45,335 nucleotides of DNA from an uncultured Gammaproteobacteria bacterium (GCA_964553365.1 CAZKKK010000001.1:1-45335); one strand, 5' to 3'; positions 11,217 to 32,141 are shown, counted from the first letter of the stretch. Translations and numbers: made by a program. Notes: generated by a model from the letters alone, not told the origin.

Positions 11217-11222
11217 AGCCTC

Positions 11223-13598: not shown

Positions 13599-13604
13599 AT
13601 TTAT

Positions 13605-14470: not shown

Positions 14471-14484
14471 ACTTTTTTATTATA

Positions 14485-17400
14485 TCACTTCTGTGGTTGC
14501 GTCCCGTCTGGAGTTGGTACTGGTTGCTCTTTTGGGATTTGCGCTTCTGGCTCTGGTTTTTTTTCATCCTTTTGAGGTGGTGTTACTGGTGCATCAATGT
14601 CAAACTGTTCTTGAACTTTACTTGAGCCACATGACGAACATATGATTGTTGCATTAGGCACCACTTCAGTGGTAAATCTCGCTGCACAGATATTACACAT
14701 ATATCTCTTCCCTTGCTTTTTCTCCTTCTTTTCAAGAAGGGTCGCTTTCTGTATATTGAAAACGAACTGTTGCCCATCAAAGTCGACCACTACTTCATCT
14801 CCTGGATTGGCTTTCTTCTCTATGATAAGGCCTGATATTGGATTTTCAACAATCCTCTGGATTGCGCGGCGAAGAGGTCTTGCACCAAACACTGGATCGA
14901 ATCCATTTCGTGCGATTTCCTTGATCGCTGCCTCGGTATATGCAAAGCCCATATCCTGGTCTTCCATGGATTTTTGGACTCCCTTGAGTTGTATTTTGGC
15001 GATTCGAGTCATATGTTCAAACCGAAGTGGTTCAAACATTATCACTTCATCAAAACGGTTTACCAGTTCAGGACGGAAAAACTTCAGCATTTCATTCATC
15101 ACTTTTTCCTTCAAGGAGGCAAACTTTTTCTTGAAGACCTCTTCATCGATCTTGTGTTTTTCTTCCACATGTTGATCGAGAGGAAGGTCTGAACCGAAAT
15201 ATTCATTTATCGATTTTGTCTTCCAAACAGTCTCACCTTGCGCTTTTGTCCATACCGACTGCCCAACCACTATCACTTCTACTCCGGAAGGAGAGAATGT
15301 ATGGATGTCCCAATATGCGACAGGCAATTGTCCTTTGTCAGCTGTCTGATCGACAAGATAATCCCGTAGAAACCCTGTCTGCCAATCACCCGTACTCAAC
15401 TTTCTTCTCCAAAACCGATCCTTATAGGTGACTATCTCTTGCTCATCGGGAGTGAAAGCATGTGTTTTCAGTGCGGCTGTAGGAAGCTGCTCATCAGGAG
15501 CATCGGGAAGAGCGTTTATTACGACTCCTTCCTTAAAATATGAAATAAGGTTTGAATGTTCCCATGTCTTTGCGGTAGTCGATGTCTTGAAAAAGACTTC
15601 TCCCGCTTTCGTGATCATTTCAATTCCAGTCGAGGACATCGCATGCGTATCGAATCCATGAAGGGGTAATTCGAGCTTTTCAGTTGATGGAGTCTGGGGA
15701 GCTACTTCTCCCTCTTTCGGTGCAACAACTGCAGCTTTCACTTCTTGACCCGCAAAATAATCTAGCAACATCTTTTCCGACCACTTCCCTTGAGATTCTT
15801 TTTCTAGGATTTTACTCCCTATGGTGAGAATCTCTCGTCCTCTTGGTGAGAATGTGTATGAAGTTATCGTTGATGGCTCTTCAATCTCAGTTTTTCCACC
15901 CTTCATCAACTCCTCCTGGATGATCTTTGATCCCAAGTTTGAAGTACAGATTACAACGGCATTCTTGAATGAAACGACATGTCCCTTGTTGTCGGTAAGT
16001 CGTCCATCATCCAATATCTGAAGGAGAATGTTAAAAATATCCGGATGAGCTTTTTCAACTTCATCGAAAAGTACGACACAGTATGGTTTTCTTCTTACCG
16101 CTTCCGTCAATTTTCCACCCTCTTCGTAGCCAACATATCCAGGAGGTGCCCCAAGAAGTTTGGCAACCTCATGTTTTTCCATATACTCCGTCATGTCGAA
16201 GCGAATCATCGCATCCTCGCTCCCAAATAGAATATCCGCGAGTGTCTTTGCTAATTCTGTTTTTCCAGTACCCGTAGGTCCCATGAATATAAACGATCCA
16301 ATAGGGCGATTTGCGGACTTCAAACCAGCTCTCCCTCTTCGAACCGCTTGGGCCACTGAGCTCACCGCTTCTTCTTGGCCGATAAGTCGTTGATGCATGA
16401 TATCTTCCAACTTCGCAAGCTTTTCAGTTTCACTTCCTGCAATCTTATTCACAGGAATGCCGGTCCAACGAGAAACTATGTCCTTAATCATGGAAACGGT
16501 CACTGCCGTTGTCGTTTGTGCTTTTTTGGTATTGAACTCATCTTTTTTTGTATTCAAGTCCCCTTCGATATCCGACAATTTTGATTTGATGATGCGCGCG
16601 CGTACGTTGTCTCCGGATTTCGTTGACTCCACCATTTCTTGATTTAGTTGTTTTATGCGCTCATCCAAAGACTTTATTTCCTCAGGAAGAGAAATGAGAG
16701 GAAGTCGTACCGCTGAAGCGGATTCATCGATCAAGTCTATTGCCTTATCGGGTAAGAATCGTTCTCCTACATAGCGTTTTGAAAGGCGGACTGCCGCCTC
16801 AACCGCATCATCTGGAATCTGGACACGATGGAAAGCTTCATATTTTCCCTTCAAAGCTTTAAGCATCTTTATTGCCTGCTCTTCTGTTGGCTCTGGAACG
16901 ACGACAGGTTGGAAACGTCTCTCAAGGGCTGGATCCTTCTCGATATACTTTCTGTATTCCGTTAAGGTAGTTGCTCCAATGATCTGCATCTCTCCTCTGG
17001 ACAGGCCTGGTTTCAATAAATTTCCAGCGTCTCCTGAACCCTCTCCGCCTGCGACGATATTGTGGATTTCATCAATGAAGAGAATTATCTGCCCTTTACT
17101 TGCCTTTACCTCATCGATGACGCCCTTCATGCGTTCTTCAAACTCACCCTTGTGTGAGGCACCCGCCATAACACTCATCAAATCCAAACCAAGAATTCTT
17201 TTGTTTAACAAAGGTTCCGGTACTTGTTTATTGACGATTTGTTGAGCTAAACCTTCAATTATTGCGGTTTTTCCAACTCCAGCCTCTCCAACCATTACTG
17301 GATTATTCTTACTTCTTCTCGAAAGGATATGAATAACTCGCTCAATTACTTGAGATCTCTCAATCACTGGATCGAGCAATCCCTGTGCGGCGCGTGCTGT

Positions 17401-18288
17401 GATATCGATGGTAAATTGGTCAAGTGAACTTTTTTTCTTTTCCGCTTCTTTTTGATCGGTCAATAGACCCTCTTTGTTTCCTGTGATCTTTTTATTTAGC
17501 TCTTCCTTTTTCAGTCCTAATTTTGCAAGTGCACGTGCGCCAATTCCTTCACCCTCTTCATATAACGCAAAAAGGATATGCTCTGGTGAAATAAACTCAA
17601 ATCCAAGTTTTCGGGCGATAATAAGAGAATTATCAATAATTCGTTTCAGTCGAGGAGACATTTGGGGTGGAACAAGTTTTGCAGGCTCACGTTTATACGT
17701 TTGGGCAAGTTCCGCCTCAATTTGTTGCGGTTGGACCTTCATTTCCATCAAAAGCTTATATATTTCTCCATCTGCGAGTAATCCGTGGAGCATGTGTTCA
17801 CTATCGATAAACGCACTTCCCATTTCCTTTGCTTTTGCCTGCGCTGTGACGAATACCCTATTGGATCGTTGCGTAAGATGTGTCATCAAATCCAAATCGG
17901 TTCTCTTTTGCGAATTCATCGTTGAGTTTAAAGATGCCCCTAAAGGTTTTGCAGGTGGGACTTGACCTGGTGCTTGCGGTTTGTCGCTCGCTGGACCAAC
18001 AGGTTTTACCGGTGGTTGACTATTCAACAACTCTTGGACCCTTACTTGTTCCGGTGTGAGTACTTTTTGGGGTGGAGCTCCAATACCGTTATAAGCCTGT
18101 CCTCCAGGTGGGTTTCCGATACCATTATATGAAGTTGTTTGAGGCCTTGTGACGGTCTGTTGAGGAATAACGACTCCTGGCTGTGTCATTGCAGGAGGCA
18201 TCTGTGATGGTGCTCCAGGAACTGGTGAAATCGAAGGAGTGCTTGCATTCGAGTTGTTATTTTTTATAAAATCAAAAAAGCCAGACAT
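14485..18288 (-). CDS. ClpC/ClpB-family double-ring AAA+ unfoldase with atypical extensions
   Basis: It has two Clp_N repeats (FIDSEHMLHGLL and FISPEHILFALY). D1 has Walker A GEAGVGKTAI and Walker B ILFIDEIH. The middle region is short, about 70 aa. D2 has Walker A GPTGTGKTELAKTLA, Walker B VVLFDEVEKAH and sensor-1 CTSNLGS. FRPELVNRFDEVIMF and GARPLRRAIQ follow. It also carries a P/Q/G-rich N-terminus, a ~240-aa insertion in D2 and a CxxC...CxxC tail. Confidence 0.93.
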   Translation of the reverse strand: MSGFFDFIKNNNSNASTPSISPVPGAPSQMPPAMTQPGVVIPQQTVTRPQTTSYNGIGNPPGGQAYNGIGAPPQKVLTPEQVRVQELLNSQPPVKPVGPASDKPQAPGQVPPAKPLGASLNSTMNSQKRTDLDLMTHLTQRSNRVFVTAQAKAKEMGSAFIDSEHMLHGLLADGEIYKLLMEMKVQPQQIEAELAQTYKREPAKLVPPQMSPRLKRIIDNSLIIARKLGFEFISPEHILFALYEEGEGIGARALAKLGLKKEELNKKITGNKEGLLTDQKEAEKKKSSLDQFTIDITARAAQGLLDPVIERSQVIERVIHILSRRSKNNPVMVGEAGVGKTAIIEGLAQQIVNKQVPEPLLNKRILGLDLMSVMAGASHKGEFEERMKGVIDEVKASKGQIILFIDEIHNIVAGGEGSGDAGNLLKPGLSRGEMQIIGATTLTEYRKYIEKDPALERRFQPVVVPEPTEEQAIKMLKALKGKYEAFHRVQIPDDAVEAAVRLSKRYVGERFLPDKAIDLIDESASAVRLPLISLPEEIKSLDERIKQLNQEMVESTKSGDNVRARIIKSKLSDIEGDLNTKKDEFNTKKAQTTTAVTVSMIKDIVSRWTGIPVNKIAGSETEKLAKLEDIMHQRLIGQEEAVSSVAQAVRRGRAGLKSANRPIGSFIFMGPTGTGKTELAKTLADILFGSEDAMIRFDMTEYMEKHEVAKLLGAPPGYVGYEEGGKLTEAVRRKPYCVVLFDEVEKAHPDIFNILLQILDDGRLTDNKGHVVSFKNAVVICTSNLGSKIIQEELMKGGKTEIEEPSTITSYTFSPRGREILTIGSKILEKESQGKWSEKMLLDYFAGQEVKAAVVAPKEGEVAPQTPSTEKLELPLHGFDTHAMSSTGIEMITKAGEVFFKTSTTAKTWEHSNLISYFKEGVVINALPDAPDEQLPTAALKTHAFTPDEQEIVTYKDRFWRRKLSTGDWQTGFLRDYLVDQTADKGQLPVAYWDIHTFSPSGVEVIVVGQSVWTKAQGETVWKTKSINEYFGSDLPLDQHVEEKHKIDEEVFKKKFASLKEKVMNEMLKFFRPELVNRFDEVIMFEPLRFEHMTRIAKIQLKGVQKSMEDQDMGFAYTEAAIKEIARNGFDPVFGARPLRRAIQRIVENPISGLIIEKKANPGDEVVVDFDGQQFVFNIQKATLLEKKEKKQGKRYMCNICAARFTTEVVPNATIICSSCGSSKVQEQFDIDAPVTPPQKDEKKPEPEAQIPKEQPVPTPDGTQPQK

Positions 18289-18296
18289 ATAATTTC

Positions 18297-18325
18297 ATTA
18301 TGGAGAATAATTTGCCCATTGTCAA
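18297..18325 (-). promoter_or_regulatory. Sigma70-type promoter for the ClpC-like gene (TTGACA-17 nt-CATAAT)
   Basis: The reverse strand of the 40-nt divergent spacer reads TTG-TTGACA-ATGGGCAAATTATTCTC-CATAAT-GAAATTAT-ATG. This is a consensus -35, a 17-nt spacer and a -10. The ATG is 8 nt after the -10, so the leader is essentially absent. Confidence 0.55.
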
Positions 18326-18327
18326 CA

Positions 18328-18910
18328 AATGATAAAAAAAATACTTCCTATCTCCATTTTCGTTCTTGTCTTTGTTTCCATTCTCCTCATTTGGTTCCAA
18401 AGCACCCTCAATAAGGGGGGTTCTGGTAACTCTTCCCTGACTCCTACTATAGTCCCAGGAAAACAAGGAAGTGGATATACTCCCCTTACCGGAAAGACTA
18501 CTGGTGGAAATGCTGTGAAACAACTCTCTCCAGAGGAACTGAAAAAGAAACTTCCCATCATCGCTCCGGATTTCACCCTTGATTATTCTCCTCGCATGCA
18601 AAGATATGTGGTTACTGAAACGGGAGAAGGAGCCGCTAATTCCTACAATGATTGGATTGAACAGAATCCTGCTGCCGCAAATGAGCTCCAGGGTGCCGTT
18701 GTTACCAAACAGACAGTGGAAGAGCTGAATGCGGTACTTGACAATGCAAAGAAGAATCAACAGACCCCAGAGGAAAAGGCAGTAGAAAAAGCCACTGCAT
18801 TTACCTCCACATTCAAAATGCTCAACAGTCTTCCTTACATACTCATGAATATCCCAACCCCTCAATCGTCATTGAATCCTACAACTCCTCCAAAAGCACC
18901 AAGTCCGACT
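18328..18910. repeat. Copy 1 of a 583-bp perfect direct repeat
   Basis: It is identical to 20213..20795. Identity was judged by direct reading of both boundaries and by identical translations in three overlapping frames of the supplied ORF track. Confidence 0.9.
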
Positions 18911-19624
18911 GAATCCATGTCTCCAACGCCGAATGAGACACAACCCACGAAAGCCACTTCACCAACTGCGTCCCCGACCATACCGAGCGGGTCCACGAGC
19001 AACATACTCCCTAATCCTCTACCTGCCATATCATCTAAGGCTTTGAGCTTTAAACAATCCATAGGGCCTTGCATTTCAAATAAATCTCTCTATGAAGTGG
19101 CGTCATCTAAAACCGGTATTCAATGGGAAATACTTGCCGCAATTCACTATAACGAAGGTGGATGCGGTCAGAATAGCTCATTAGTGAGCGGGCGCGCGAT
19201 CGGAACGAACGAACCAGATATCGTACGAGGTGGTGGTTGTAGTAGCGGGGTAAGTGGGGAGGGAATTCCTTATCCTCTTCCCGGTGGTGGGTGTGGTTTT
19301 AAGACTCTCCTAGACTCGGCGATTTATGCAGGGAATCACATAAAGGGCAAGATCGGGAAAGTCCCCTCCAACTTTCAGGAACTTGCGAAGGCGTTTACTC
19401 GTTATAACGGAGGGGGCAACTCTAACTGTGGAAAAACTCCTTATACTAATTGCCCACGATTGTATGAAGGAGAAGATGATCCCTACGTCATGAACTTCTT
19501 CGATAGCAAACATGAAACGATGTATCTTGTGTACTGCGCGGATTTGACAAAATGTAATCCACCTCGGTCCTATGTTCGCCCTGGGGCCGGCACCATTATT
19601 AGATTAGTTACTAACCAAATATGA
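18329..19624 (+). CDS. Secreted/anchored protein: shared N-module + PTS linker + lysozyme-like (lytic-transglycosylase-like) domain
   Basis: It has an N-terminal TM/signal (ILPISIFVLVFVSILLIWF), the 194-aa shared module and a Pro/Thr/Ser linker. The C-terminal domain has WEILAAIHYNEGG (candidate catalytic Glu) and FTRYNGGG, which resembles the A-Y-N-x-G motif of SLT-family transglycosylases. Several Cys are present. Confidence 0.7.
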   Translation: MIKKILPISIFVLVFVSILLIWFQSTLNKGGSGNSSLTPTIVPGKQGSGYTPLTGKTTGGNAVKQLSPEELKKKLPIIAPDFTLDYSPRMQRYVVTETGEGAANSYNDWIEQNPAAANELQGAVVTKQTVEELNAVLDNAKKNQQTPEEKAVEKATAFTSTFKMLNSLPYILMNIPTPQSSLNPTTPPKAPSPTESMSPTPNETQPTKATSPTASPTIPSGSTSNILPNPLPAISSKALSFKQSIGPCISNKSLYEVASSKTGIQWEILAAIHYNEGGCGQNSSLVSGRAIGTNEPDIVRGGGCSSGVSGEGIPYPLPGGGCGFKTLLDSAIYAGNHIKGKIGKVPSNFQELAKAFTRYNGGGNSNCGKTPYTNCPRLYEGEDDPYVMNFFDSKHETMYLVYCADLTKCNPPRSYVRPGAGTIIRLVTNQI

Positions 19625-20196
19625 ACTTTCTACAAAGCACCAAAAACAAGATTGTAGTATTTATATCTCTTTTTTTTCTTTTTGGAATTATATTCCTACT
19701 GTCAAAAAATACCTTCATTGAAACAAAAAAATCAAACAATATCTCTCCTACGAGCATAAACACCCAAAACAGCAGCGAAAAAAATCCTTCATATAAAAAA
19801 GGGGGTCTAATTCCTACCTATCCGCCCAAAGAAGGGAGTGGAGTGGATCTAAGGACTCCCTTAGTAACACAATCAATAATAGAAATCGAAAAATTATATT
19901 CCTCTCTTCCTTATGAGGTAACAATAAATACACCTTCAAACCAGGAAGTTTCCATTGTCATTCCAGATAAAACAGCACAAACAAATCCATGGACTCTCCA
20001 AGTCTATGTTTTTGGTCTAGATTATCAACTTGCCAAAAATGATCCAGAATATGCCTCAGCAAAAAATTCTTTCAAATATTCCGTCGCTTCTCTTTATAAA
20101 TGGATTGAGGAAAAAGGTGCAGATCCCAAAAAAATAATGATCATCTGGGGAGATAAAGAACTTATACAGAACAAGTCGCAAGAGTGGCTTGAATAA
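19621..20196 (+). CDS. Membrane-anchored hypothetical protein (partner of hydrolase 1)
   Basis: Its ATG overlaps the upstream stop (ATGA). It has an N-terminal TM (IVVFISLFFLFGIIFLL) and an extracytoplasmic domain of about 160 aa. Confidence 0.65.
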   Translation: MNFLQSTKNKIVVFISLFFLFGIIFLLSKNTFIETKKSNNISPTSINTQNSSEKNPSYKKGGLIPTYPPKEGSGVDLRTPLVTQSIIEIEKLYSSLPYEVTINTPSNQEVSIVIPDKTAQTNPWTLQVYVFGLDYQLAKNDPEYASAKNSFKYSVASLYKWIEEKGADPKKIMIIWGDKELIQNKSQEWLE

Positions 20197-20212
20197 TGTA
20201 GTATGAATATAT

Positions 20213-20795
20213 AATGATAAAAAAAATACTTCCTATCTCCATTTTCGTTCTTGTCTTTGTTTCCATTCTCCTCATTTGGTTCCAAAGCACCCTCAATAAG
20301 GGGGGTTCTGGTAACTCTTCCCTGACTCCTACTATAGTCCCAGGAAAACAAGGAAGTGGATATACTCCCCTTACCGGAAAGACTACTGGTGGAAATGCTG
20401 TGAAACAACTCTCTCCAGAGGAACTGAAAAAGAAACTTCCCATCATCGCTCCGGATTTCACCCTTGATTATTCTCCTCGCATGCAAAGATATGTGGTTAC
20501 TGAAACGGGAGAAGGAGCCGCTAATTCCTACAATGATTGGATTGAACAGAATCCTGCTGCCGCAAATGAGCTCCAGGGTGCCGTTGTTACCAAACAGACA
20601 GTGGAAGAGCTGAATGCGGTACTTGACAATGCAAAGAAGAATCAACAGACCCCAGAGGAAAAGGCAGTAGAAAAAGCCACTGCATTTACCTCCACATTCA
20701 AAATGCTCAACAGTCTTCCTTACATACTCATGAATATCCCAACCCCTCAATCGTCATTGAATCCTACAACTCCTCCAAAAGCACCAAGTCCGACT
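20213..20795. repeat. Copy 2 of the 583-bp perfect direct repeat
   Basis: It is identical to 18328..18910, with a period of 1885 nt. Confidence 0.9.
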
Positions 20796-21380
20796 AATGG
20801 AGCATCCAATCCTACACCGACCAAAGTAGCTTCCAATCCACCAGCTTCGGGAACTGGATATGTATATTACTCACAATGTAGTGGTCCATACGATGCGCTT
20901 CCACTTCCGAATGGATGCACTATTTGCTATGCCGGATGTGGACCGACAAGTGCTGCAATGCTACTTTCAACATTTATTGATAAATCCCTCACCCCTCCAA
21001 AAACGATCGACCTCATGGATAAAGCAGGTGTTCGTATTGGATGTTATGGCTCTTATGTATCAGAGATATACTCCTATTTGAAAAGAAGGGGTGATCTTAA
21101 AGTCACCGATTTCATAATTCCTTCTGAACAAGCCCTCTCTGCAAAAAGTGTTGCGAAGGACTTCAAAGGATACACAGACGCAGGATACGCAGTGTTCGTT
21201 CTTGCCAACTTTAAAGTGGGAAGTGGCGGCCATTATTTCCTGGTCACAGCCGTAAACGACAATGGAGATATTCTTGCTTACGACCCATACTACGGAAAAC
21301 AACAAACCCCCCCTATAAATGAAAATAGATATGCACCAGCACCGTATTATCGTTATGCATTTGCCGTAAAAAAATCATGA
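20214..21380 (+). CDS. Secreted/anchored protein: shared N-module + linker + C39-like papain-fold cysteine peptidase
   Basis: It carries the same 194-aa N-module. The C-terminal domain has YYSQ (oxyanion Gln), AGCGPTSAAMLL (nucleophile Cys context typical of Peptidase_C39_2), GSGGHYFLVTAV (His) and LAYDPY (Asp). Confidence 0.78.
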   Translation: MIKKILPISIFVLVFVSILLIWFQSTLNKGGSGNSSLTPTIVPGKQGSGYTPLTGKTTGGNAVKQLSPEELKKKLPIIAPDFTLDYSPRMQRYVVTETGEGAANSYNDWIEQNPAAANELQGAVVTKQTVEELNAVLDNAKKNQQTPEEKAVEKATAFTSTFKMLNSLPYILMNIPTPQSSLNPTTPPKAPSPTNGASNPTPTKVASNPPASGTGYVYYSQCSGPYDALPLPNGCTICYAGCGPTSAAMLLSTFIDKSLTPPKTIDLMDKAGVRIGCYGSYVSEIYSYLKRRGDLKVTDFIIPSEQALSAKSVAKDFKGYTDAGYAVFVLANFKVGSGGHYFLVTAVNDNGDILAYDPYYGKQQTPPINENRYAPAPYYRYAFAVKKS

Positions 21381-21847
21381 TCCCAAAATCAATAATTAAA
21401 TTCTATTTAGTGCCCGGTGTTATTGTGTTAGTGATAATCATTTTGGTGCTCATCATTCCTTTAGGGAAAAAGAAGGAGACAATCCAAACTCCATCACCAA
21501 CTTCCGAGACCCCAGTAAACATCTCAATTACCAAGGCTGTTTCTCGCCCTCTGACTCCATCTTCAGCAAATAAAATCTCCCCCACCCTTATTCCCATTCC
21601 AGACTTTACTGGTGCCGAGGCAAATCAAGAACTTCCCCCTGACATAAAGATATTGGGGGAACAAAAAACGACACTTCGCAGGCTTACCCCCCTCACGCTT
21701 CCTTTTGCGGTAATAAACTTTGATTATGAGAACGATATGTTTGTAGTACTCCTATCAGAACCGAAAGACCAAAGCAGGGTACAATTCAATGCCTGGAGAG
21801 ATCAAAATTATTCCGCCTTAACGGACTCTAAATTTGTATTCAATTGA
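21377..21847 (+). CDS. Membrane-anchored hypothetical protein (partner of hydrolase 2)
   Basis: Its ATG overlaps the upstream stop (ATGA). It has an N-terminal TM (LVPGVIVLVIIILVLII) and a PTS linker. The C-terminal ~55 aa resemble part of the shared N-module. Confidence 0.65.
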   Translation: MIPKSIIKFYLVPGVIVLVIIILVLIIPLGKKKETIQTPSPTSETPVNISITKAVSRPLTPSSANKISPTLIPIPDFTGAEANQELPPDIKILGEQKTTLRRLTPLTLPFAVINFDYENDMFVVLLSEPKDQSRVQFNAWRDQNYSALTDSKFVFN

Positions 21848-21919
21848 CCTGTCCTCTCAATAGAATAGCCTCAGAACTTTTAGTCTTTACAGAGTGTATA
21901 TACTTGTATACAATGAATT

Positions 21920-23602
21920 ATGCCTCGTGTATTTACCTCAGGAATTGATTTCATTAAAAAAGCAATTTTGGTAGTGGTGGTCTACTATATAGTTTTCTCC
22001 ATATTTGGCAACGTAATCAATAGGAATCGTCCTCAAATTGATGATAAGGTTATTATTGCCGCCCAACAAAAAGAAATGTATAAGGTGTTGGACAACAATA
22101 AATTGAGTCAAACCAAGGCTGGGAAGATTTCGATAGCTCTCTATCGATTTACTAATTGTGCATTTATAGGAGAGCTTTGCACAGACAAGCCGATTGCGGA
22201 TGATAGCTACTTCAAATCAAGCCTCTTGGGTAAAATGTCATCGCTGATAGCACTTCCGTATCAAAATCCCCCGGCCTCAGGTGCCTATTGGGTAGCTGAC
22301 ACTCTTCAAAAAGCCGGCTTTATACCCGCCTCATATGCGGCAGAGGGTCTTGGGTATTCTTCATTGAAGCCTCTCATAAATATATGGAAAATTTTTCGTG
22401 ATGTTTCCTATCTCCTTATTGTCCTCATACTCGTCTCTATTGGATTTATGATTATGTTCCGCATGAAACTCAATCCTCAAACGGTTATATCAGTAGAAAA
22501 TGCACTCCCAAAGATAGTCGTCGCATTACTTCTCATTACTTTTTCATTCGCGATAGCGGGTTTCTTAATCGATATTACATATCTCCTCATACTTCTTTCC
22601 ATAAATCTTCTCAGTACCGGGGACGTGTATGTCAAAGTCCAAAACCAACTTCTTAATTCGAACTTGGGAACGTTGTGGGACTATATTCTCCCTAAAAATG
22701 GAACACTACTCGACCCAGTGTCTCGAGTATTTTATTTGGGCGATGCATTCGCTGCATTATTACCGAATGAAATAAATAATGCAGTTAAGATTCTGTCAGG
22801 TGGAGCTATTCTCTATTTTGTAGGAGCCTCCATGGTGAGAAAAGTCGAAGGAACGGGATTAGTAGCGTTTTTAAATGGCATAAACATTATAGGAAATGGT
22901 GTGGGAAATCTTTTTCAGGGGATAATTGGCACTATTGTGACTTTGGTGATTTATTCAAGTCTAGGTATAATGGCCGCAAATGGGCTTGGACTTATTTTTG
23001 GGATAATCGTCTTCCTTACTTTCACAAGTATATTGTTCACTATTTTCTTTCTCCTATTCCGATCTTATTTGCAAATTATCCTCATGATTGTTTTTGCCCC
23101 GGTTATCTTGCTCCTTGAAGCTGTGCCGGGAAAATCTACTTTCGGTTATTGGATTAAAGGGTTAATTGGAGAACTTATTACATTCCCAGTCGTTATTACG
23201 ATGCTCTTGGTGGGAAAAATGATGACGACCACCTTATCATATCCAGGTGACTATTGGAAAGCTCCATTTATTGGAAATCTGAATACCACAGGGTTTGGAG
23301 TAATAATGGGAGCTGGATTGATTTTTCTTATCCCCGACATTGTTAAACTAGTCAAAGATGGACTTGGAGTGAAGCCTCTTCCATTTAATCTTGGTGTCGG
23401 CACCTTTCTTGGTGGTGCTGGAGTACTGGGAGGAGGAGCTATGGGTATCTTGCAGCAATTTAGTACCTTGAATATGGGTATGGCTGCATTTGGAGATCAG
23501 GGTATCATTTCAAAATTACGAGGTAAGGGTGAGATTCCAAAAGAAAAAGCAAAGACTCCAGCTGTTACAACGGGTGTCGTTGTCCCAGGTCAGCCAACAT
23601 AA
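21920..23602 (+). CDS. Large polytopic integral membrane protein (possible VirB6/TrbL-like channel component, speculative)
   Basis: It is 560 aa. An N-terminal TM and an extracytoplasmic loop of about 130 aa come first. At least 8-10 hydrophobic helices and a Gly-rich C-terminal region (GVGTFLGGAGVLGGGAMG) follow. No catalytic motif was recognised. Confidence 0.7.
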   Translation: MPRVFTSGIDFIKKAILVVVVYYIVFSIFGNVINRNRPQIDDKVIIAAQQKEMYKVLDNNKLSQTKAGKISIALYRFTNCAFIGELCTDKPIADDSYFKSSLLGKMSSLIALPYQNPPASGAYWVADTLQKAGFIPASYAAEGLGYSSLKPLINIWKIFRDVSYLLIVLILVSIGFMIMFRMKLNPQTVISVENALPKIVVALLLITFSFAIAGFLIDITYLLILLSINLLSTGDVYVKVQNQLLNSNLGTLWDYILPKNGTLLDPVSRVFYLGDAFAALLPNEINNAVKILSGGAILYFVGASMVRKVEGTGLVAFLNGINIIGNGVGNLFQGIIGTIVTLVIYSSLGIMAANGLGLIFGIIVFLTFTSILFTIFFLLFRSYLQIILMIVFAPVILLLEAVPGKSTFGYWIKGLIGELITFPVVITMLLVGKMMTTTLSYPGDYWKAPFIGNLNTTGFGVIMGAGLIFLIPDIVKLVKDGLGVKPLPFNLGVGTFLGGAGVLGGGAMGILQQFSTLNMGMAAFGDQGIISKLRGKGEIPKEKAKTPAVTTGVVVPGQPT

Positions 23603-23689
23603 AGAAAGACAACTGAATATTACTTAATATTAAGACTCCTAATGCCTCTGCATGTTTCAACCTAACTTTATTGCTTTGAAGGAGGAGTG

Positions 23690-24436
23690 TTAACTGAATC
23701 CTGGTATCTTAAGTATATCGACTCCAATTATCTTAAGGATGAGCACTGAAAAAATGATAACCATGAGTCCCGTGATACAATTTGTCATCATCTCCTGAGC
23801 CTTCTTCACCTTCTCGGCGTTCCCAGCTGATGTTTGCATTTGAAACGCAGCAAGCATGATGCAGAGCATAGAAATACCCCCCGCAAGCCCTATCCCGGTC
23901 CTCATTATATTATTTGCGATAAAGTCCCCAATGTTCCCGTTAAAGCATCCCAAAGCAGTCCATGCACCTGATTTGTTATGTGAACAGTCTATGCAGAGCG
24001 TTTGTTCTGAAGGTGATTTGATATTTTGACACAAAGGCTCCAAAGCGGAAAGTGGCTCCGCTGGGGGTTCGATAATGCAGACGCATCCTGCATCTGCCTG
24101 CGGCCCACTTGGCGTCCCTTCTGCACACGCTTTTACTACTATCGACTTCTGTTGCTGGATCAATTCATTTGTGACTTTGTCAGTGAGTGGTTGAAGGATA
24201 TCTCGACCTGCATTAAGAACAATATTGTTGTAGTCAATGGTCCCCGGCTTAATGATGGGAGATTTACAGCATTTTTGAAAATCCCCCGTTCTATTGGGAT
24301 CTCCACAATTTATACCCGGTTGAGGAGCATCTGTAACGCCAACCACCTGGGAATAGGAGGTCTTCTGCGTAATTACCAGTACCGTAATGACGAATAATAT
24401 CGCCAATATTTTTCTTACCATATATTTACTATACAC
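23690..24436 (-). CDS. Secreted Cys-rich protein with a C-terminal two-TM pilin-like (TrbC/VirB2 or T4SS-pilin-like) module
   Basis: It has a signal peptide (ILAILFVITVLVITQKTSYSQ) and an ectodomain of about 150 aa with about 12 Cys. These are followed by GIGLAGGISMLCIMLAAFQMQTSAGNAEKVKKAQEMMTNCITGLMVIIFSVLILKIIG. Confidence 0.7.
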   Translation of the reverse strand: MYSKYMVRKILAILFVITVLVITQKTSYSQVVGVTDAPQPGINCGDPNRTGDFQKCCKSPIIKPGTIDYNNIVLNAGRDILQPLTDKVTNELIQQQKSIVVKACAEGTPSGPQADAGCVCIIEPPAEPLSALEPLCQNIKSPSEQTLCIDCSHNKSGAWTALGCFNGNIGDFIANNIMRTGIGLAGGISMLCIMLAAFQMQTSAGNAEKVKKAQEMMTNCITGLMVIIFSVLILKIIGVDILKIPGFS

Positions 24437-24442
24437 TAATGA

Positions 24443-27400
24443 TTACTTCTTTTTTCCTTCAGAATTTTCAAAAGCCTTTTTAATTTGAGCTATCAAAATG
24501 AAAAGAAGGAATGCAGGGAGATATTTATTAAGGATATCAAAGAACATATCGTTTTTTGTTCCTCCGAATTTTTCCCTAAGCGATTTGGACCACACCGCAT
24601 GATTGCGTTTTCTTTTCCAGAAAAGCGGAACGTCGGGAATCGTAAACTCTTTATCAATTCCGGGTATTTTAAATTTACCCGTCTTTGAATCTCCCCCGAG
24701 TAATCCTGCGAGTTTTGAAGTTGATATTTTTTCCGGCATCTTCATGGGCTTTTTCAAAAAAGGCAGTGTCAAATATACCGGTTCTTTTTCTGGCTCTGAT
24801 GCAATATTGTATGGCGTCCCTGGAACAAGGTTTCGCGCTTCAAGAGCGGTGATAAAGCGATCAATATCGGAACTGTCCCACTCCCACACTCCCGTTTTCC
24901 TATGAACGCTCTCTGCCGCCATTGAATTGAACCGCCCTATTCCGAATGCACCCATCATCGCCCGCGCTTGTGTGTCTTTTTTCATATACATTATCGTCAT
25001 TGACGCTAAGTTTGAGGCAAGTTCATTTGCATAAGGAAATCCAATGATGCCATCCATCGCGCCCCACACTTTTTGGATGATCTCAATCACGGGGCCGAAA
25101 TCCTTCTTACCGTTTATTGCCATGTCGCGCAGAGTTTTCACTAACTGAGTGATAGGTTCCGAAACGCCTTTTTCAACGGCTGCGACGTCTCGGAGAGATC
25201 TTGCAAGTACGCTTTCTCCTCCTCCTCGGAAGGGGATGAAACTCATATCCGTTTCGTCCAATGCAATAGTATATTTTGATTTGCGTTCTTGTGCACCTCC
25301 ATGTTTGAAAAAAGGGACAAGGTCTACATCGACAAATTCCTTTCCCTTATTGGGCCCAGTTGTATACTTGAAATCGATATAATTGCTTTGGATGTGACCG
25401 AATAATTTCAAAACATTGTTAAGTCGCGTCTGGTCCATCTTCCCTTTTGCGATAAGAGGACCAAGGAGGGCTTTGATTGTGTCTGGATTCATTTCATAAT
25501 CTATTTCTCCATATTTCCACTCTTCTCCCGGCTTCCCACTATCACGTTTTATATACATTTGTCTACTCACGTCTCTCCGCAGCATTTGTTCAGCCAAGAG
25601 CATGTCTGTCATGATGTTGTCGAATTTGTCAGACTCTCCCTCAAGACCCATATCTTTCATCACTTTTTTATACCTACTCGTTCCGTCGGGGGAAAGCCTA
25701 TCACGATCCATGCGGATTATTTTGCTCGGCAAACGCTTCACGATGACGCGCGCAAGCATCCGATCTAAAAATTCGAATGATGCTGCCGCTTCCACTTCTC
25801 CCTCAATATCGTCCGGGGCGCTCAGACCGCTGCGGACTTTCCCTAGGACTTCATTCCTCTTCGCATCACGGATCTTATCCATGTATTTACCCAGGTCTTT
25901 TGGATCTTTATCGAAATATTTTTCAAATATATACTTAAATAAAGCATCTTTTTGTTCATACAGTGCTGATTGCTCTTTACTCATTCCAAAAGTACTCCGA
26001 GCTTTTAAAAGATCATCATCCCCTGCTTTTGGATGTGGACCAAGCTTGGTAACATAATCCTGCAAAAGTTCATAACCGATATTCTCTAAATGTTGAAAAG
26101 TTTTCAAATGGTTTGTTTTGACATAACTTTGTCCTTTTTCATTTGTTACTTTATCGCTGATATAAAGACTATCAAGTTGCCATGCAGTACGCCAACCCTT
26201 GCGCTGCATAGGACCTCCCACTAGACCAATATTGTTAAGCTTATCGAAGAATGTCTGTTCAGGGAGCGGCTCTCGCCCTTTAATGAAGGATGCCTTATAT
26301 TTCTCTGCCTTATCCCACAGCGCGTGATGGTCGGTAAATGCCTGACTCCCTTTAAAACTGTCAACGGGGAGGAAAAAGATTGGATCAAGAAGATTTGGTC
26401 CTCCCGCGAAACGAGCCAAGAGGTGTTGGGGATTAAAAGCCATGAGAGCAGTAGCATCCTGGTGATAATAGCTTGTGAATGTGGATCCTCCCGTCTCATT
26501 CAGATGGGGATCTGCATGGGCAGCCATCTCAACCTCAGTGAGAAACATTCCACGTGAAGCTCCAACAGCCATAGTAAGAGCGGCGGTAAGCCGTTCCTCT
26601 GAAGCATCTCCAAACATCGCACTTAGTTGCTCCAAAACCCGACCTTCGATTTGGGTGGTGTGCTTATTCAGTTGTGCTGTAAACATTCCAGCCGAGTGTC
26701 GCCAATCATTTTTCGCGAAGCCCTCTTCAATCATTTTGTTATACAAACCAAAAGCACTCTGAAAAATATCATTATCGGGCAACAACATCATCTGATCGAA
26801 GTCCAACATCGATGTCTCTGCTGCGAATTTTGCAAGTTGACCATAAAATCCTGTCTGGGCATCAACCGGATGAAGAAAGACCGCGCGGGAATTATGAGTA
26901 TATCTTCGAGCTTCGATATAATGATCAACGATTTGATCTAGGTAATGTGCAAAATGCGAGCCGCTCGCCTCTTCTGCTTCCAACTTGGTTCTAAATCGGG
27001 GACGTGGTTTAAGGCTCCCTTTGACATTGACTGAAACGGTTTCCGTATCCTGCTCCAACCGTTGGAAAAACTTCGGAGCTTCTTTTCCGCTTTTTTCAAG
27101 TTCTACCTGATACGGTGCTAAGCTCGTTCCCAGGAGAGTAATGCGGCGTTTGAGCTCGCTTTTTACCGGAGTGATACCCTTCATGATATCCTCTTGTTCG
27201 ATGCTCTGGAAAAACTCCTTCGGGCTTTCATGATCTAGCCTTGTATACAACTTCGCGAACAAAAGAGATATCTTCACTTCCATTTGCTCCGAAGCCTTTT
27301 GGGCTATCTTTGTTTTATCGAGGCTCGGATCTTTTTTTATTTCTTCTGCTTGGATCTTTTCGTAATAATCGACAAACTTAGCGGGGGAATACAACGCTTT

Positions 27401-28168
27401 TACCAAATCTTTTTCTGCCCCTTCATTGAAATGACCCGAAAAAATATGCTCCCAATTTTGATTGAATGCCGATTCTGCGGATCTCTCTTCCATTGCTCTT
27501 CTTTGGGATTCTTCATTTTGAACCATGTCTGTGCTTACTTCTTGAACACCAAACATCTTATTTGCATCCTTTTCTGCAATATTATTTTCTTTTGCATATT
27601 CAACGCCTGCTTTTTGAATTTTTCCAAATACATCGGCTGAGGCAGAATCAAAGTTTGCAACGGGAGCAATCTTCCGCACTTCTTCCGCGAGATTATCTAC
27701 TCCCACTTTCCCCTCGGTGATCGACTTCAATAGATCATAAAAATACGGAGCATTTTGATCGTTGATTTCTTCTAATCGTATATGGGAGCTTATTTTCTGA
27801 AGAAGCTTAGTGCTCTCAGGAGTGGGGATAGGAGCCTTTGGATCTTTCGGTGTGGGTTTATCAGCTGCAGGTATTTTTTCAGGAGTATTTCGTGCGGCAT
27901 AAAACATTTTTTGGATAAGCTCCGTTATTGAGTTTGCCTTCCCCCGCTCTGTTCCCGTATCATTCTTATCTCCCGATCCAAAATCATGTTGTCGTTTATT
28001 ATTTTGAATAAGATCGATCTCTATATTTTGCTTTATATCTGTCACCCATTTTCCCAGTCTCACAAATTCTTCCTTCAACTGCTCGGCAGATTGAGCTTTC
28101 ACTTTCTGCTCAATTTTCTGTTCAACAGCTGATGAGCCCGAATTGTTTTCCACAGAATTCTCTGCCAT
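24443..28168 (-). CDS. Giant (1241 aa) hypothetical protein, predicted tail-anchored
   Basis: It is a single uninterrupted ORF with no signal peptide and no P-loop (no GxxxxGK[ST]). The only hydrophobic helix is at the extreme C-terminus (YLPAFLLFILIAQI). It ends 6 nt upstream of the pilin-like gene. Confidence 0.8.
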   Translation of the reverse strand: MAENSVENNSGSSAVEQKIEQKVKAQSAEQLKEEFVRLGKWVTDIKQNIEIDLIQNNKRQHDFGSGDKNDTGTERGKANSITELIQKMFYAARNTPEKIPAADKPTPKDPKAPIPTPESTKLLQKISSHIRLEEINDQNAPYFYDLLKSITEGKVGVDNLAEEVRKIAPVANFDSASADVFGKIQKAGVEYAKENNIAEKDANKMFGVQEVSTDMVQNEESQRRAMEERSAESAFNQNWEHIFSGHFNEGAEKDLVKALYSPAKFVDYYEKIQAEEIKKDPSLDKTKIAQKASEQMEVKISLLFAKLYTRLDHESPKEFFQSIEQEDIMKGITPVKSELKRRITLLGTSLAPYQVELEKSGKEAPKFFQRLEQDTETVSVNVKGSLKPRPRFRTKLEAEEASGSHFAHYLDQIVDHYIEARRYTHNSRAVFLHPVDAQTGFYGQLAKFAAETSMLDFDQMMLLPDNDIFQSAFGLYNKMIEEGFAKNDWRHSAGMFTAQLNKHTTQIEGRVLEQLSAMFGDASEERLTAALTMAVGASRGMFLTEVEMAAHADPHLNETGGSTFTSYYHQDATALMAFNPQHLLARFAGGPNLLDPIFFLPVDSFKGSQAFTDHHALWDKAEKYKASFIKGREPLPEQTFFDKLNNIGLVGGPMQRKGWRTAWQLDSLYISDKVTNEKGQSYVKTNHLKTFQHLENIGYELLQDYVTKLGPHPKAGDDDLLKARSTFGMSKEQSALYEQKDALFKYIFEKYFDKDPKDLGKYMDKIRDAKRNEVLGKVRSGLSAPDDIEGEVEAAASFEFLDRMLARVIVKRLPSKIIRMDRDRLSPDGTSRYKKVMKDMGLEGESDKFDNIMTDMLLAEQMLRRDVSRQMYIKRDSGKPGEEWKYGEIDYEMNPDTIKALLGPLIAKGKMDQTRLNNVLKLFGHIQSNYIDFKYTTGPNKGKEFVDVDLVPFFKHGGAQERKSKYTIALDETDMSFIPFRGGGESVLARSLRDVAAVEKGVSEPITQLVKTLRDMAINGKKDFGPVIEIIQKVWGAMDGIIGFPYANELASNLASMTIMYMKKDTQARAMMGAFGIGRFNSMAAESVHRKTGVWEWDSSDIDRFITALEARNLVPGTPYNIASEPEKEPVYLTLPFLKKPMKMPEKISTSKLAGLLGGDSKTGKFKIPGIDKEFTIPDVPLFWKRKRNHAVWSKSLREKFGGTKNDMFFDILNKYLPAFLLFILIAQIKKAFENSEGKKK

Positions 28169-29803: not shown

Positions 29804-29941
29804 TTAAACGGTCAAATTCTTTCTTCCCTTTGCTCGTCTTCGCGCGATAACCTTACGACCATCTGGAGTGGCCATGCGGGCTAAAAATCCATGTGTCTTT
29901 ACACGTTTTCCTTTTTTTGGCTGAAATGTTCTTTTTGGCAT
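29804..29941 (-). CDS. rpmH: 50S ribosomal protein L34
   Basis: It is not in the ORF track (under 60 aa). The reverse strand reads [45 protein letters not shown] followed by a stop. Confidence 0.93.
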
Positions 29942-29979: not shown

Positions 29980-32106
29980 TCAAACCTTTCGCTGTAAAAC
30001 CGACTCATTTTCCCCATTGAATACTTGCCACAAAGCCTCGGTCTCAAAAGGAATGAAAGGATGAAGCATCACGACACATTCAAGGAACGCCTTTTCAAGG
30101 GTTTTTTGGACCTCGCTATTCCCTGCTTTGAGCTCTTCCTTAAGTTCTTCTATATATACATCTGCAAATCGATGCCATGTGAATGCATGGAGATCTCCCA
30201 ATACCTGCCCGAATTTGTATCCATCCATGTTTTTATGGTAGGTCTTTTTTACAGATTCAAGTTCTTTTATTAATTTAACTAGTTTGTCATTTTGAACTTT
30301 TGGCTTTGTACTATCAGCTTTTACTTCTGTCCTGTTCATATAGATGAATCGTCCGATATTCCAAAGCTTATTTCCGAAATTCCTCATCCCGATCATCTTC
30401 TCATCGGTAAGCACTACATCGCTTCCCTCTTTTGTCTCAAACATCAAGCTCGCTCGAAGCACATCAGCCCCGAATTTCTGTATCACCTCAAGTGGGTTCA
30501 CCACGTTTCCTTTGCTCTTGCTCATCTTCTGGCCATTCTTGTCCCGTACTAATCCATGGAGAAAAACCGTCTTGAAGGGAACTTTTCCCGTGACATGAAG
30601 ACCCAACATAAGCATGCGTGCAACCCAAGCTCGCAAAATATCGTGACCCGTTTCCATTACAGCCGTAGGATAAAAATGATTATACATTTCGCTACCCGAC
30701 GTCTGCAGAGTGACAAATGGCCACTGGCCTGAAGAAAACCACGTATCAAACGTGTCTTCATCTTGTTTAAAAAGTATGGACGAACAGTGTGGGCATTTTT
30801 CCGGCTTTTCAAGCGACACGAACCATCCCATTGCATGTCGACATATATCATTCTTCATTTCCACGCATTTATATGCCGGAATACGTATTCCCCAAACAAT
30901 TTGGCGGGATATATTCCAGTCGATGAAATTATCCAATATGCGAATGAGTTCTTTTTTGAAACGTTTTGGATATACTTCGACCTCTCCCTTTTTCACGGCT
31001 TCGATAGCCCTCGCTGCAAGTGGCTTGATTGAGATAAACCATTGCTCTTTAGGAAGTGGTTCAATAACCCGTTTGCAGCGATAACATCTGCCAACTCGGT
31101 GCATATGTTTTTTTTCTTCTCCAAGCAAATCCTTTTCTTTTAGAGAAAGAAGGACGGCTTCACGCGCTTTTGAAATTGAGAGACCGGCATATTCTCCGGC
31201 ATCTTTTGTCATTTTTCCATCAGTACCAATCACTTGGATGTTCATTAGGCCGTGTTTTTGCCCCATTTCCCAATCAGTATGATCATGAGAAGGGGTCACT
31301 TTCACCGCTCCGGTTCCAAACTTCATATCGACCGAATCATCAGCGATAATTTGGACTTCACGACCGATAAGTGGGACCATTGCATACTTCCCAATCAATT
31401 TTTTATAGCGTTTGTCTTTTGGATTGACCACTATCGCGGTGTCGCCAAGAAGTGTCTCAGGGCGAGTCGTTGCGACGGTGATTGAGCCATTTCCTTCGCG
31501 TAATGGATAGCGGATTTCCCAAAGAGTACCCTCTCTTTCTTCATAATCCACTTCAAGGTCGGAAAATGAGGTTCCGCAATTGACGCAATAATTCACCAGT
31601 TTTTTTGCACGATAGGTGAGTTTATCATCGAAGAGCTTCTTGAATGTGGTGTGGACGATTTTTACGATATTTTCATCCATCGGAAACTTTGGATTATCAT
31701 AATCAAGCCCAAATCCGAGTTTTTGGAGCTGATCCTTCATTATGTTCTTATTCTGTGAAACAAAATCATATATCATCTGGAACAGCACGTTTCGTTCAAA
31801 ATCAAATCTACTTTTCCCTTCTTTTTTCAGATGTTTTTCAAATACGAACTGGGTTTCAATCCCTGCATGGTCCGTGCCATACATCCATAAGGTGTTGTCT
31901 CCCTGCATCTTTCGATATCGGATCATTATGTCTTCATAGACCATCATCGCATGCCCTAAATGAAGATCTGCATTTGCGTTTGGTGGAGGAAGGATGATAC
32001 AAAACGGCTTTTTGTTCTTTTCGACGACGCCTTTGAAATATCCTTTTGATTCCCAAAATGAAGACAGTTTTTGCTCGAATAGAGCTGGTGTATACTTACT
32101 TTCCAT
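29980..32106 (-). CDS. valS: Valine--tRNA ligase
   Basis: The HIGH region is PPPNANADLHLGH and KMSKS is present (GQKMSKSKGNVV). TRPETLLGDTAIVVNP is the ValRS editing-domain signature. The track start at 32124 is a GTG. ATG 32106 gives MESKYTPALFEQK, which fits ValRS N-termini. Confidence 0.93.
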   Translation of the reverse strand: MESKYTPALFEQKLSSFWESKGYFKGVVEKNKKPFCIILPPPNANADLHLGHAMMVYEDIMIRYRKMQGDNTLWMYGTDHAGIETQFVFEKHLKKEGKSRFDFERNVLFQMIYDFVSQNKNIMKDQLQKLGFGLDYDNPKFPMDENIVKIVHTTFKKLFDDKLTYRAKKLVNYCVNCGTSFSDLEVDYEEREGTLWEIRYPLREGNGSITVATTRPETLLGDTAIVVNPKDKRYKKLIGKYAMVPLIGREVQIIADDSVDMKFGTGAVKVTPSHDHTDWEMGQKHGLMNIQVIGTDGKMTKDAGEYAGLSISKAREAVLLSLKEKDLLGEEKKHMHRVGRCYRCKRVIEPLPKEQWFISIKPLAARAIEAVKKGEVEVYPKRFKKELIRILDNFIDWNISRQIVWGIRIPAYKCVEMKNDICRHAMGWFVSLEKPEKCPHCSSILFKQDEDTFDTWFSSGQWPFVTLQTSGSEMYNHFYPTAVMETGHDILRAWVARMLMLGLHVTGKVPFKTVFLHGLVRDKNGQKMSKSKGNVVNPLEVIQKFGADVLRASLMFETKEGSDVVLTDEKMIGMRNFGNKLWNIGRFIYMNRTEVKADSTKPKVQNDKLVKLIKELESVKKTYHKNMDGYKFGQVLGDLHAFTWHRFADVYIEELKEELKAGNSEVQKTLEKAFLECVVMLHPFIPFETEALWQVFNGENESVLQRKV

Positions 32107-32114
32107 AGAATTGT

Positions 32115-32123
32115 ATTGTACCA
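32115..32123 (-). promoter_or_regulatory. Extended -10 (TGGTACAAT) 8 nt upstream of the valS ATG
   Basis: The reverse strand reads TGGTACAAT-ACAATTCT-ATG, with no Shine-Dalgarno between them. Confidence 0.4.
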
Positions 32124-32141
32124 CTAGTCGTTAATTTTATA

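Follow-up and report, generated by a model that had tools for sequence, protein, structure and literature searches.

The 45,335-nucleotide (nt) contig CAZKKK010000001.1 of assembly GCA_964553365.1, referred to as the window throughout, carries beside recF a cluster of envelope genes which we hold, with modest confidence, to be the envelope module of a genetically split type IV secretion system (T4SS) of the Patescibacteria type. The window originates from a genome of Candidatus Roizmanbacteria, an ultrasmall bacterium of the Candidate Phyla Radiation (CPR, Patescibacteria); wherever a taxon was given, the homologs of its 560-residue membrane protein came from Roizmanbacteria, Microgenomates or Patescibacteria. 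The cluster encodes two proteins with homology to T4SS pilins and a cysteine peptidase with a complete set of active-site residues, its gene order is retained in related genomes, and a T4SS ATPase is absent in cis. The module would further comprise a VirB6-like channel protein, an active muramidase, small partner proteins of the hydrolases and a large protein of 1241 amino acids (aa), and it would be coupled to a VirB4 ATPase encoded at a distance.

A first-pass annotation made from the sequence alone had read positions 18329–28168 as a T4SS-like parts list without an ATPase and had offered three interpretations, namely a degenerate T4SS, a T4SS with its ATPases elsewhere or a distinct surface apparatus. 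Its parts list holds for the pilin, the C39-like peptidase and the synteny, but not for the protein resembling lytic transglycosylases (LT-like), and comes down to a weak fold resemblance in the case of VirB6. Among the three interpretations, ATPases encoded elsewhere are best supported and a distinct apparatus ranks lower, whereas a degenerate T4SS is unlikely because the locus is conserved intact across about 230 species. All seven open reading frames (ORFs) then called are present where they had been placed, with the same spacings. Overlooked were a 103-aa pilin, a 67-aa transmembrane protein, a 221-aa HExxH protein and a 583-nt repeat. As the short-pilin operon lies beyond the region considered at that time, the locus extends over approximately 13287–28168 and comprises the following features:

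13287–13598, minus strand: short VirB2-like pilin, 103 aa, hairpin of two transmembrane helices; PF18895 match above cut-off, syntenic pilin of ~105 aa in related loci
13605–14270, minus strand: polytopic HExxH membrane protein, 221 aa; weak match to Peptidase_M50B, motifs invariant in 24 orthologs
14267–14470, minus strand: single-pass membrane protein, 67 aa; ORF with a transmembrane segment, 4-nt overlap with the next gene
14485–18288, minus strand: ClpB-like double AAA+ protein, 1267 aa; Pfam Clp_N, AAA, AAA_lid_9, AAA_2 and ClpB_D2-small
18329–19624, plus strand: putative muramidase-like (formerly "LT-like") protein, 431 aa; conserved domain family with no Pfam or PDB match
19621–20196, plus strand: single-pass partner of the muramidase-like protein, 191 aa; ORF with a transmembrane segment, 4-nt gene overlap
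20214–21380, plus strand: C39-like cysteine peptidase, 388 aa; Pfam Peptidase_C39_2
21377–21847, plus strand: single-pass partner of the C39-like peptidase, 156 aa; ORF with a transmembrane segment, 4-nt gene overlap
21920–23602, plus strand: polytopic membrane protein, 560 aa, candidate highly divergent VirB6-like protein; weak Foldseek resemblance
23690–24436, minus strand: long pilin, 248 aa; sub-threshold PF18895 match, homology to the 103-aa pilin
24443–28168, minus strand: large orphan protein, 1241 aa; helical structure model, no family match
18328–18910: copy 1 of a perfect direct repeat of 583 nt, encoding a 194-aa membrane anchor and linker
20213–20795: copy 2 of this repeat, encoding the same 194-aa anchor and linker

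The plus-strand unit and the minus-strand unit of long pilin and large orphan converge across a gap of 87 nt (23603–23689), and a 40-nt spacer separates the hydrolase genes from the divergently transcribed ClpB-like gene, both as described before. The 6-nt spacing between the 1241-aa and 248-aa ORFs also holds, provided that the latter begins with GTG. This start is ambiguous: an ATG at codon 6 would result in a protein of 243 aa and a gap of 21 nt to the 1241-aa gene, and the exact product of the GTG start is absent from the protein collection in which neighbouring proteins of the window are present. The genes of the ClpB-like, 67-aa, 221-aa and 103-aa proteins follow each other on the minus strand with gaps of 14, −4 and 6 nt and form an apparent operon with the ClpB-like gene in first position. 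Scans for promoters and terminators gave no signal above chance level, and no repeats or tRNA-type borders were found at the locus except for the internal 583-nt duplication.

The gene neighbourhood was compared among 86 related loci, designated by L-numbers, using local phmmer and hidden Markov model (HMM) analyses; a scan of one genome per species for relatives of the 560-aa protein had returned 230 at species level, and 80 loci were fetched from it. The site between recF and jag-yidC-rpmH is conserved in nearly all loci from these 80 species-level genomes. Complete or single-contig Roizmanbacteria chromosomes with the locus include CP066689.1 (at 218–240 kb), MGBH01000001.1 and CAWJTN010000001.1. 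In the common layout, recF is followed by the short pilin, the HExxH protein, a small transmembrane protein and the ClpB-like protein, which diverges from one or several hydrolase/partner cassettes; the 560-aa family comes next and converges with the long pilin and a protein of ~1200–1400 aa, after which jag, yidC, rpmH and leuS are located. The genes of the 560-aa protein, the long pilin and the large protein (referred to as the trio), for which the first-pass annotation had considered conserved synteny decisive, are adjacent in the loci with enough flanking sequence. The trio is inverted as a block in L033, L037, L047 and L050, and the order of the long-pilin and large-protein genes is swapped in L022. 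Different flanks were found in L038 and L068, with neither a ClpB-like nor a C39 gene within 10 kb of the trio, and in L170, where the trio lies beside a Fic gene and no ClpB-like gene is found within 10 kb. As the trio is constant while the hydrolase cassettes vary, it represents the invariant core of the locus and not an accessory.

Median identities of the window proteins, computed against 38 loci, were 31% for the 1241-aa protein, 38% for the 156-aa partner, 39% for the HExxH protein, 40.5% for the 560-aa protein, 41% for the long pilin, 44% for the C39 domain and 49.5% for the short pilin. The corresponding values of the housekeeping proteins were 51% for RecF, 56% for LeuRS, 57% for Jag and 59% for YidC, and the ClpB-like protein reached 68%. 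By this measure the proteins of the locus evolve faster than housekeeping genes, and the ClpB-like protein behaves as a housekeeping chaperone. Across the relatives, motifs are conserved and ORFs are intact down to 14–40% identity.

The 103-aa ORF matched the Pfam family PF18895 (T4SS_pilin) with an E-value of 7.8e-10 and 39.1 bits, compared to a cut-off of 26.6 bits. For the 248-aa protein, a hydropathy and motif script indicated 12 cysteines, an N-terminal signal or transmembrane segment and two C-terminal transmembrane helices. Its C-terminus matched the same family under the cut-off (E 9e-5, 22.9 bits), as did three long-pilin orthologs tested (E 4.6e-5 to 0.025). The C-terminal hairpin shows 34% identity over 70 aa to the 103-aa pilin of the window (E 1e-10), and this homology to a true PF18895 pilin (13287–13598) supports the pilin reading proposed earlier for the 248-aa protein. 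Orthologs of 237–693 aa differ in their ectodomains while the C-terminus is near-invariant. As judged from these comparisons, the protein is a long pilin, in which a signal or transmembrane segment and a Cys-rich ectodomain that varies in length precede a hairpin of the PF18895 type.

The 221-aa protein, encoded in related loci too at the position flanked by the ClpB-like and short-pilin genes, matched Peptidase_M50B only weakly (E 0.016) and could not be assigned to any other family. Its motifs HE..H and MFSS.qDL.D do not vary among 24 orthologs. The protein may be an intramembrane metalloprotease, and one can speculate that it plays a role in pilin maturation. The position of the 67-aa gene is occupied by ORFs of 50–69 aa in L001, L005 and L167.

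Residues 1–194 do not differ between the 431-aa and 388-aa proteins and are encoded by the two copies of the perfect 583-nt repeat; hence, one membrane anchor with a Pro/Thr linker carries two different C-terminal enzymes. The repeat points to a recent duplication or gene conversion, or possibly to an artefact in the assembly of the metagenome-assembled genome. The closest relative possesses two hydrolase/partner pairs as well (444, 189, 405 and 154 aa). The 388-aa protein matched Peptidase_C39_2 (PF13529) with an E-value of 2.5e-9 and 38.3 bits (cut-off 24), and 50 orthologs retain Q221, C242 (within GCGPT), H340 and D357 without exception, so that the assignment as a C39-like peptidase in the first-pass annotation is substantiated by a match above cut-off and an intact Q/C/H/D set. 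Orthologs of its 156-aa partner were found in 56 of the 86 loci. The 191-aa and 156-aa partners show no mutual similarity, which speaks against their being paralogs. Elsewhere the hydrolase/partner cassettes vary in number and type, with CHAP, M14, C39_2 or muramidase-like domains at the same place, and each hydrolase then has its own small ORF of ~150–260 aa.

The 431-aa protein consists of the N-terminal membrane anchor, the Pro/Thr-rich linker and a Cys-rich, putative muramidase-like domain (residues ~225–431). The former reading of this domain as LT-like was not borne out, as it has no Pfam, PHROG or PDB match even with profiles; a relationship to SLT or lysozyme domains by sequence was not found, the best link being a single SLT_2 match with an E-value of 0.32. 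When 1.84 billion representatives were searched with full HMMER, a family of 539 clusters was delineated, in which the domain is usually C-terminal in proteins of 143–2411 aa. The domain has the invariant motifs H..E, SLVSGR.IG..EPD and RYNG.GN.NC. Pfam domains found in 49 multidomain members were T4SS_pilin (4), CHAP (3), Peptidase_C39_2 (2), M14 (1) and glycoside hydrolases (2); among the closer homologs, two out of 32 were pilin fusions. The fusions to CHAP, Peptidase_C39_2, M14 and T4SS_pilin fit a wall hydrolase linked to a pilin system, and the domain is probably an unannotated, wall-degrading domain tied to such a system. Two homologs are labelled 'lysozyme family protein' by JGI. In L167 and L168, the corresponding place is taken by homologs of the 431-aa protein, each followed by an ORF of 186–194 aa. 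The PF18895 hairpin can be fused to either the N- or the C-terminal side of the muramidase-like domain (P0191, P0212; 4/49 multidomain members). These CPR fusions suggest that a pilin domain can carry enzymatic cargo.

The 560-aa protein, polytopic according to the hydropathy script, had been described as VirB6/TrbL-like. More than 838 homologs were found, none of them with a functional name or a Pfam domain. No Pfam match was obtained for any of 51 homologs, with none to TrbL/VirB6 at E ≤ 1, and sequence searches of the PDB, profile search included, returned no match to the family. A structure model calculated with AlphaFold2 (AF2) reached a predicted local distance difference test (pLDDT) value of 71.8. 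When this model was compared by Foldseek with 350,542 PDB chains, TrwI/VirB6 of R388 occupied ranks 1–4 and 6–9 and DotA rank 5, with weak scores throughout (E 0.12–1.2, probability ≤0.82, TM-score 0.3–0.46). For the earlier claim this amounts to a weak fold resemblance: the top fold matches are TrwI/VirB6, but a sequence signal is missing. The model comparison is suggestive of a VirB6-like protein.

The 1241-aa protein contains neither a Walker A motif nor cysteine residues and ends with one C-terminal hydrophobic helix and an ...EGKKK tail. It has no match in Pfam, NCBIfam, PHROG or PDB. The AF2 model is confident and mostly helical (pLDDT 80.2, predicted template modelling score 0.75); a structural relative was not found in PDB or BFVD, where the best hit had a probability of 0.14 and a TM-score of ~0.1. 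Divergent large proteins encoded at the same position in related loci were missed by the HMM and were matched by hhalign with 99.5% probability (E 3.6e-23, 14% identity, 960 columns), which identifies them as homologs. The orthologs of ~1200–1400 aa are Cys-poor, and the C-terminal hydrophobic helix and the ...EGKKK tail are conserved. The idea that the protein is a degenerate VirB4 was rejected: it lacks Walker A and has no Pfam, NCBIfam or PHROG match, a phmmer comparison with VirB4 of CPR origin was empty, 30 homologs gave no consistent weak match, and the AF2 model is without PDB or BFVD relative.

The ClpB-like protein contains all Pfam domains of ClpB, and it scored 940.6 bits with the NCBIfam ClpB model, below the cut-off of 1232.1. 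This low score results from a P/Q-rich N-terminal extension of ~135 aa and an insertion of ~280 aa in the D2 domain. The insertion is composed of four repeats of ~45–60 aa with the motif T.(F/A)(S/T)P.G.E..., and the C-terminus carries a CxxC...CxxC zinc ribbon. Orthologs range from 942 to 1620 aa. The protein may simply be a housekeeping disaggregase.

A VirB4-family ATPase is, to our knowledge, a hallmark of every T4SS. The first-pass annotation had stated that no VirB4/VirD4/VirB11-type protein, relaxase or integrase lies in the 45 kb, and Pfam scans of the main window ORFs (at least 120 aa) agree with this and did not detect a coupling protein (T4CP) in the window. A phmmer search with the CPR VirB4 of locus L158 (7504–9339), run against the six-frame ORFs of the window and every ORF of 166 loci, yielded nothing at E ≤ 10, which places VirB4 more than 10 kb away from the locus throughout the sampled clade. 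Walker A-containing ORFs of at least 450 aa, Clp and EF-G aside, were absent from the 86 loci. Locus L158 belongs to another CPR lineage (metagenome contig Ga0172381_10003829, 1364–9339) and encodes a VirB4 of 611 aa ~5 kb from recF (P-loop_TraG 2e-30, DUF87 and AAA_10 by Pfam), the neighbours of which (758, 232, 233 and 246 aa) do not resemble window proteins in sequence.

Published tables indicate where the motor may be found. VirB4 is marked present in 41 of 56 Roizmanbacteria assemblies counted (Table S1, PMC12102498), among them the locus-carrying genomes L002 and L013 (single contigs, 1.217 Mb) and L057 (PMC12102498). It is encoded next to TrsD in two of three Roizmanbacteria genomes considered, with at most one pilin nearby (PMC12102498), and this set complements the parts found at the recF-proximal locus. 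The L057 genome has a PF18895 pilin nine genes away from VirB4 (PMC12102498), and this pilin may be the one of the locus. As VirB4 is tabulated in several genomes which carry the locus, a split Patescibacteria-type T4SS is the best reading.

The remaining genes of the window encode, according to Pfam, a major facilitator superfamily transporter (MFS), glycosyltransferases, two-component systems, a MacB-type ABC system, RecF, YidC, Jag, LeuRS, DUF2298, an ATP-dependent DNA ligase, a deformylase, an AAA+ protein of the Mg-chelatase (ChlI) family, RecA and RecX; rpmH is located at 29804–29941. The DNA ligase (37931–39664, minus strand) is of the archaeal/eukaryotic ATP-dependent type and LeuRS (29980–32124, minus strand) is short with 714 aa; both features have been reported from CPR genomes. 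Next to recF, an ORF of 293 aa (11325–12206, plus strand) has a prepilin methylation motif at its N-terminus (Pfam N_methyl, 2.7e-7), by which it is classified as a type IV pilin or pseudopilin-like gene. As it overlaps the TTG start of a response-regulator ORF (10536–11426), this start is probably wrong. The base composition is uniform along the window, with no anomaly at the locus.

T4SSs with VirB2-like pilins, a clade of the MPF-FATA type, have already been described in Patescibacteria (PMC10633639, PMC12102498). The T4SS of the saccharibacterium Southlakia epibionticum (SEML1_0006–0019) starts at a distance of three genes from dnaA-dnaN-recF, and the majority of the cluster scored as essential (PMC10633639); the Patescibacteria T4SS is essential for epibiotic growth in the single species in which this has been tested. 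Encoded in the cluster are one protein that combines lysozyme-like and cysteine-proteinase domains, a large peptidase, VirB4, PrgI and a protein resembling TrsD, together with two VirB6-like/T4SS proteins of ~1000 aa that carry ARM repeats, an NTF2-like protein and six pilins of family PF18895 (PMC10633639). The locus described here shares with it the origin-proximal site by recF, PF18895 pilins in a single-membrane organism, the absence of a relaxase, the combination of a (here putative) glycosidase and a cysteine peptidase, a polytopic candidate VirB6-like protein and a large helical (ARM-like) mass, presumably cytoplasmic. In contrast to Southlakia, the window locus is without VirB4, TrsD and PrgI/VirB3 in cis, and an NTF2-like VirB8 was not detected by sequence. 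Its hydrolases are individual proteins that have an N-terminal anchor and a partner each and vary as cassettes; its candidate VirB6-like protein is short (560 aa) and unrecognisable by sequence; and the helical mass is a separate, tail-anchored protein of 1241 aa that would replace the ARM-like one. Furthermore, one of its pilins displays a large variable ectodomain, and the ClpB-like and HExxH genes are co-operonic with the short pilin.

A survey of 3035 Patescibacteria genomes reported VirB6 to be scarce in Microgenomatia, 'suggesting extreme sequence divergence' (PMC12102498), while VirB2 arrays are abundant in this group and T4SS genes lie near origin-proximal genes (PMC12102498). The T4SS machines of single-membrane cells span the wall, have VirB1-type hydrolases in which a glycosidase is joined to a CHAP or cysteine-peptidase module, and possess a polytopic VirB6-like protein (PMC12102498); the locus resembles them in its C39-like peptidase, its putative muramidase and its candidate VirB6-like protein. 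Those machines, however, cluster VirB4, the coupling protein and the relaxase and are without VirB2-type pilins, whereas the window locus lacks the ATPases and has pilins. The dispersed T4SS islands of Rickettsia (cited in PMC12102498) are a precedent for parts scattered over chromosomal loci, although these belong to a Gram-negative system of mating-pair formation type T (MPF-T) in which all parts are recognisable, and dispersal in the present case is deduced. The CPR "Pam" pilus (bioRxiv 10.64898/2026.03.03.709456) was ruled out, as its pilins are Ig-like, assemble by donor strand and occur in a different gene context.

Other explanations have to be weighed against a split T4SS. The locus could be an arsenal for degradation of the host cell wall, made up of tethered hydrolases with immunity or control partners, in which the PF18895 hairpins are mere anchors, the 560-aa and 1241-aa proteins have some other, unrelated task in the envelope, and neither channel, filament nor VirB4 is needed; we regard this as unlikely. 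Hydrolases that differ between genomes in how many and which types are present, and that are each accompanied by a dedicated partner of ~150–260 aa, resemble effector–immunity pairs; the two partners of the window are unrelated to each other. Such pairs (X-Tfe/X-Tfi) are known from the bacteria-killing T4SS of Xanthomonas, and peptidoglycan hydrolase genes beside genes of small cognate envelope proteins are likewise T4SS-associated there; by analogy, the partners in the window may act as immunity proteins, although the window hydrolases, unlike those of Xanthomonas, bear N-terminal membrane anchors. An anchor or display module would also be fused straight to enzymes, as the pilin domain is in other CPR proteins, and both the fast evolution of the locus proteins relative to the flanking housekeeping genes and the absence of an ATPase in cis agree with an arsenal. 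On the other hand, the 103-aa short pilin is cargo-free and a typical VirB2-like subunit, and pilins of the same family in Southlakia belong to a T4SS cluster of mostly essential genes. The only structural resemblance of the 560-aa protein, although weak, is to VirB6, and the trio is invariant while the hydrolases are variable, which identifies the trio and not the hydrolases as the core.

We assign a distinctly low probability to a self-contained contact apparatus at the recF-proximal locus that works independently of VirB4. Here, the ClpB-like AAA+ protein would serve as the motor which extracts pilins and further subunits and, helped by the HExxH protease, processes and drives them through the 560-aa channel, with the 1241-aa protein as a new cytoplasmic platform; the pilins may include versions with enzymes or adhesin ectodomains. 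The tight apparent operon of the ClpB-like gene with the 67-aa, HExxH and short-pilin genes speaks for such a motor, as do the recurrence of this arrangement in related loci, in some of which the pilin directly follows the ClpB-like gene, the divergent hydrolase genes only 40 nt away, the unusual insertion and the score under the NCBIfam ClpB cut-off. However, the ClpB-like protein is the most conserved one in the region (68% median identity versus 31–50% for the locus proteins) and shows housekeeping behaviour, the trios of L038, L068 and L170 have no ClpB-like gene in the surrounding 10 kb, and related genomes encode VirB4/TrsD. Moreover, we know of no pilus or secretion system (T4SS, type IV pilus or type VI secretion system) that uses a ClpB-type unfoldase as assembly motor; the role of ClpV is limited to sheath recycling. 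A decaying remnant of an integrated conjugative element which has lost its ATPases, relaxase and integrase would explain the T4SS-like parts list without these proteins. We give this very little credence, as the locus occupies the same chromosomal site in nearly all loci, its ORFs are intact with motifs kept at 14–40% identity, and the base composition is without anomaly and border structures are missing; the mobile-element remnant was rejected on conservation and fixed position.

Several observations weigh against the split Patescibacteria-type T4SS itself. The VirB6 assignment leans on Foldseek matches with E ≥ 0.12 and TM-scores ≤0.46 and has zero sequence support, and no relation of the muramidase-like domain to any lysozyme or lytic transglycosylase has been demonstrated. 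VirB4 is absent from the window and, in the 86 loci, from the 10 kb around the 560-aa gene; it was also not found within 10 kb of recF in Roizmanbacteria-like metagenome loci, the contigs of which carry EF-G, RpoC, a DEAD helicase and other housekeeping genes around recF. Pfam and NCBIfam scans, which cover sequence models only, gave no VirB3/PrgI or VirB8 signal for the window proteins, including those of 67, 156 and 191 aa. At least one genome with the locus, that of L052, is listed without VirB4, although TrsD adjoins a so-called T4CP in it (PMC12102498), and the link between the locus and VirB4 is drawn at the level of the clade. In addition, collinearity extends to the housekeeping flanks in most Roizmanbacteria loci, so that the bulk of the synteny carries little functional information; the informative cases are the loci in which the trio is rearranged or has different flanks.

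If the locus is the envelope module of a split T4SS, the following model can be proposed. The Patescibacteria-type T4SS, which derives from the conjugation machinery of monoderm bacteria, would employ two VirB2-like pilin-domain proteins, a short pilin and a long pilin that displays a variable Cys-rich ectodomain on the surface. The 560-aa protein would act as a very divergent VirB6-like channel subunit, and the 1241-aa helical protein, anchored at the cytoplasmic face, might form a platform analogous to the ARM repeats in the extended VirB6-like proteins of Saccharibacteria. A variable set of membrane-anchored wall hydrolases of the muramidase-like and C39-like types, each paired with a small single-pass protein, would open the peptidoglycan of the cell itself or of its host, so that the conduit of pilin and VirB6-like protein reaches the host cell needed by the epibiont. 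The VirB4/TrsD motor would be encoded at another site of the genome.

Two unannotated protein families were defined in this analysis, one of the muramidase-like domain (539 clusters) and one of the 1241-aa protein. If the proposed reading is true, the T4SS is genetically split in the Roizmanbacteria lineage. The locus offers candidates for the missing envelope parts of Microgenomatia, namely a VirB6-like family, short and cargo-bearing pilins, variable hydrolase/partner cassettes and a universal orphan protein of 1200–1400 aa.

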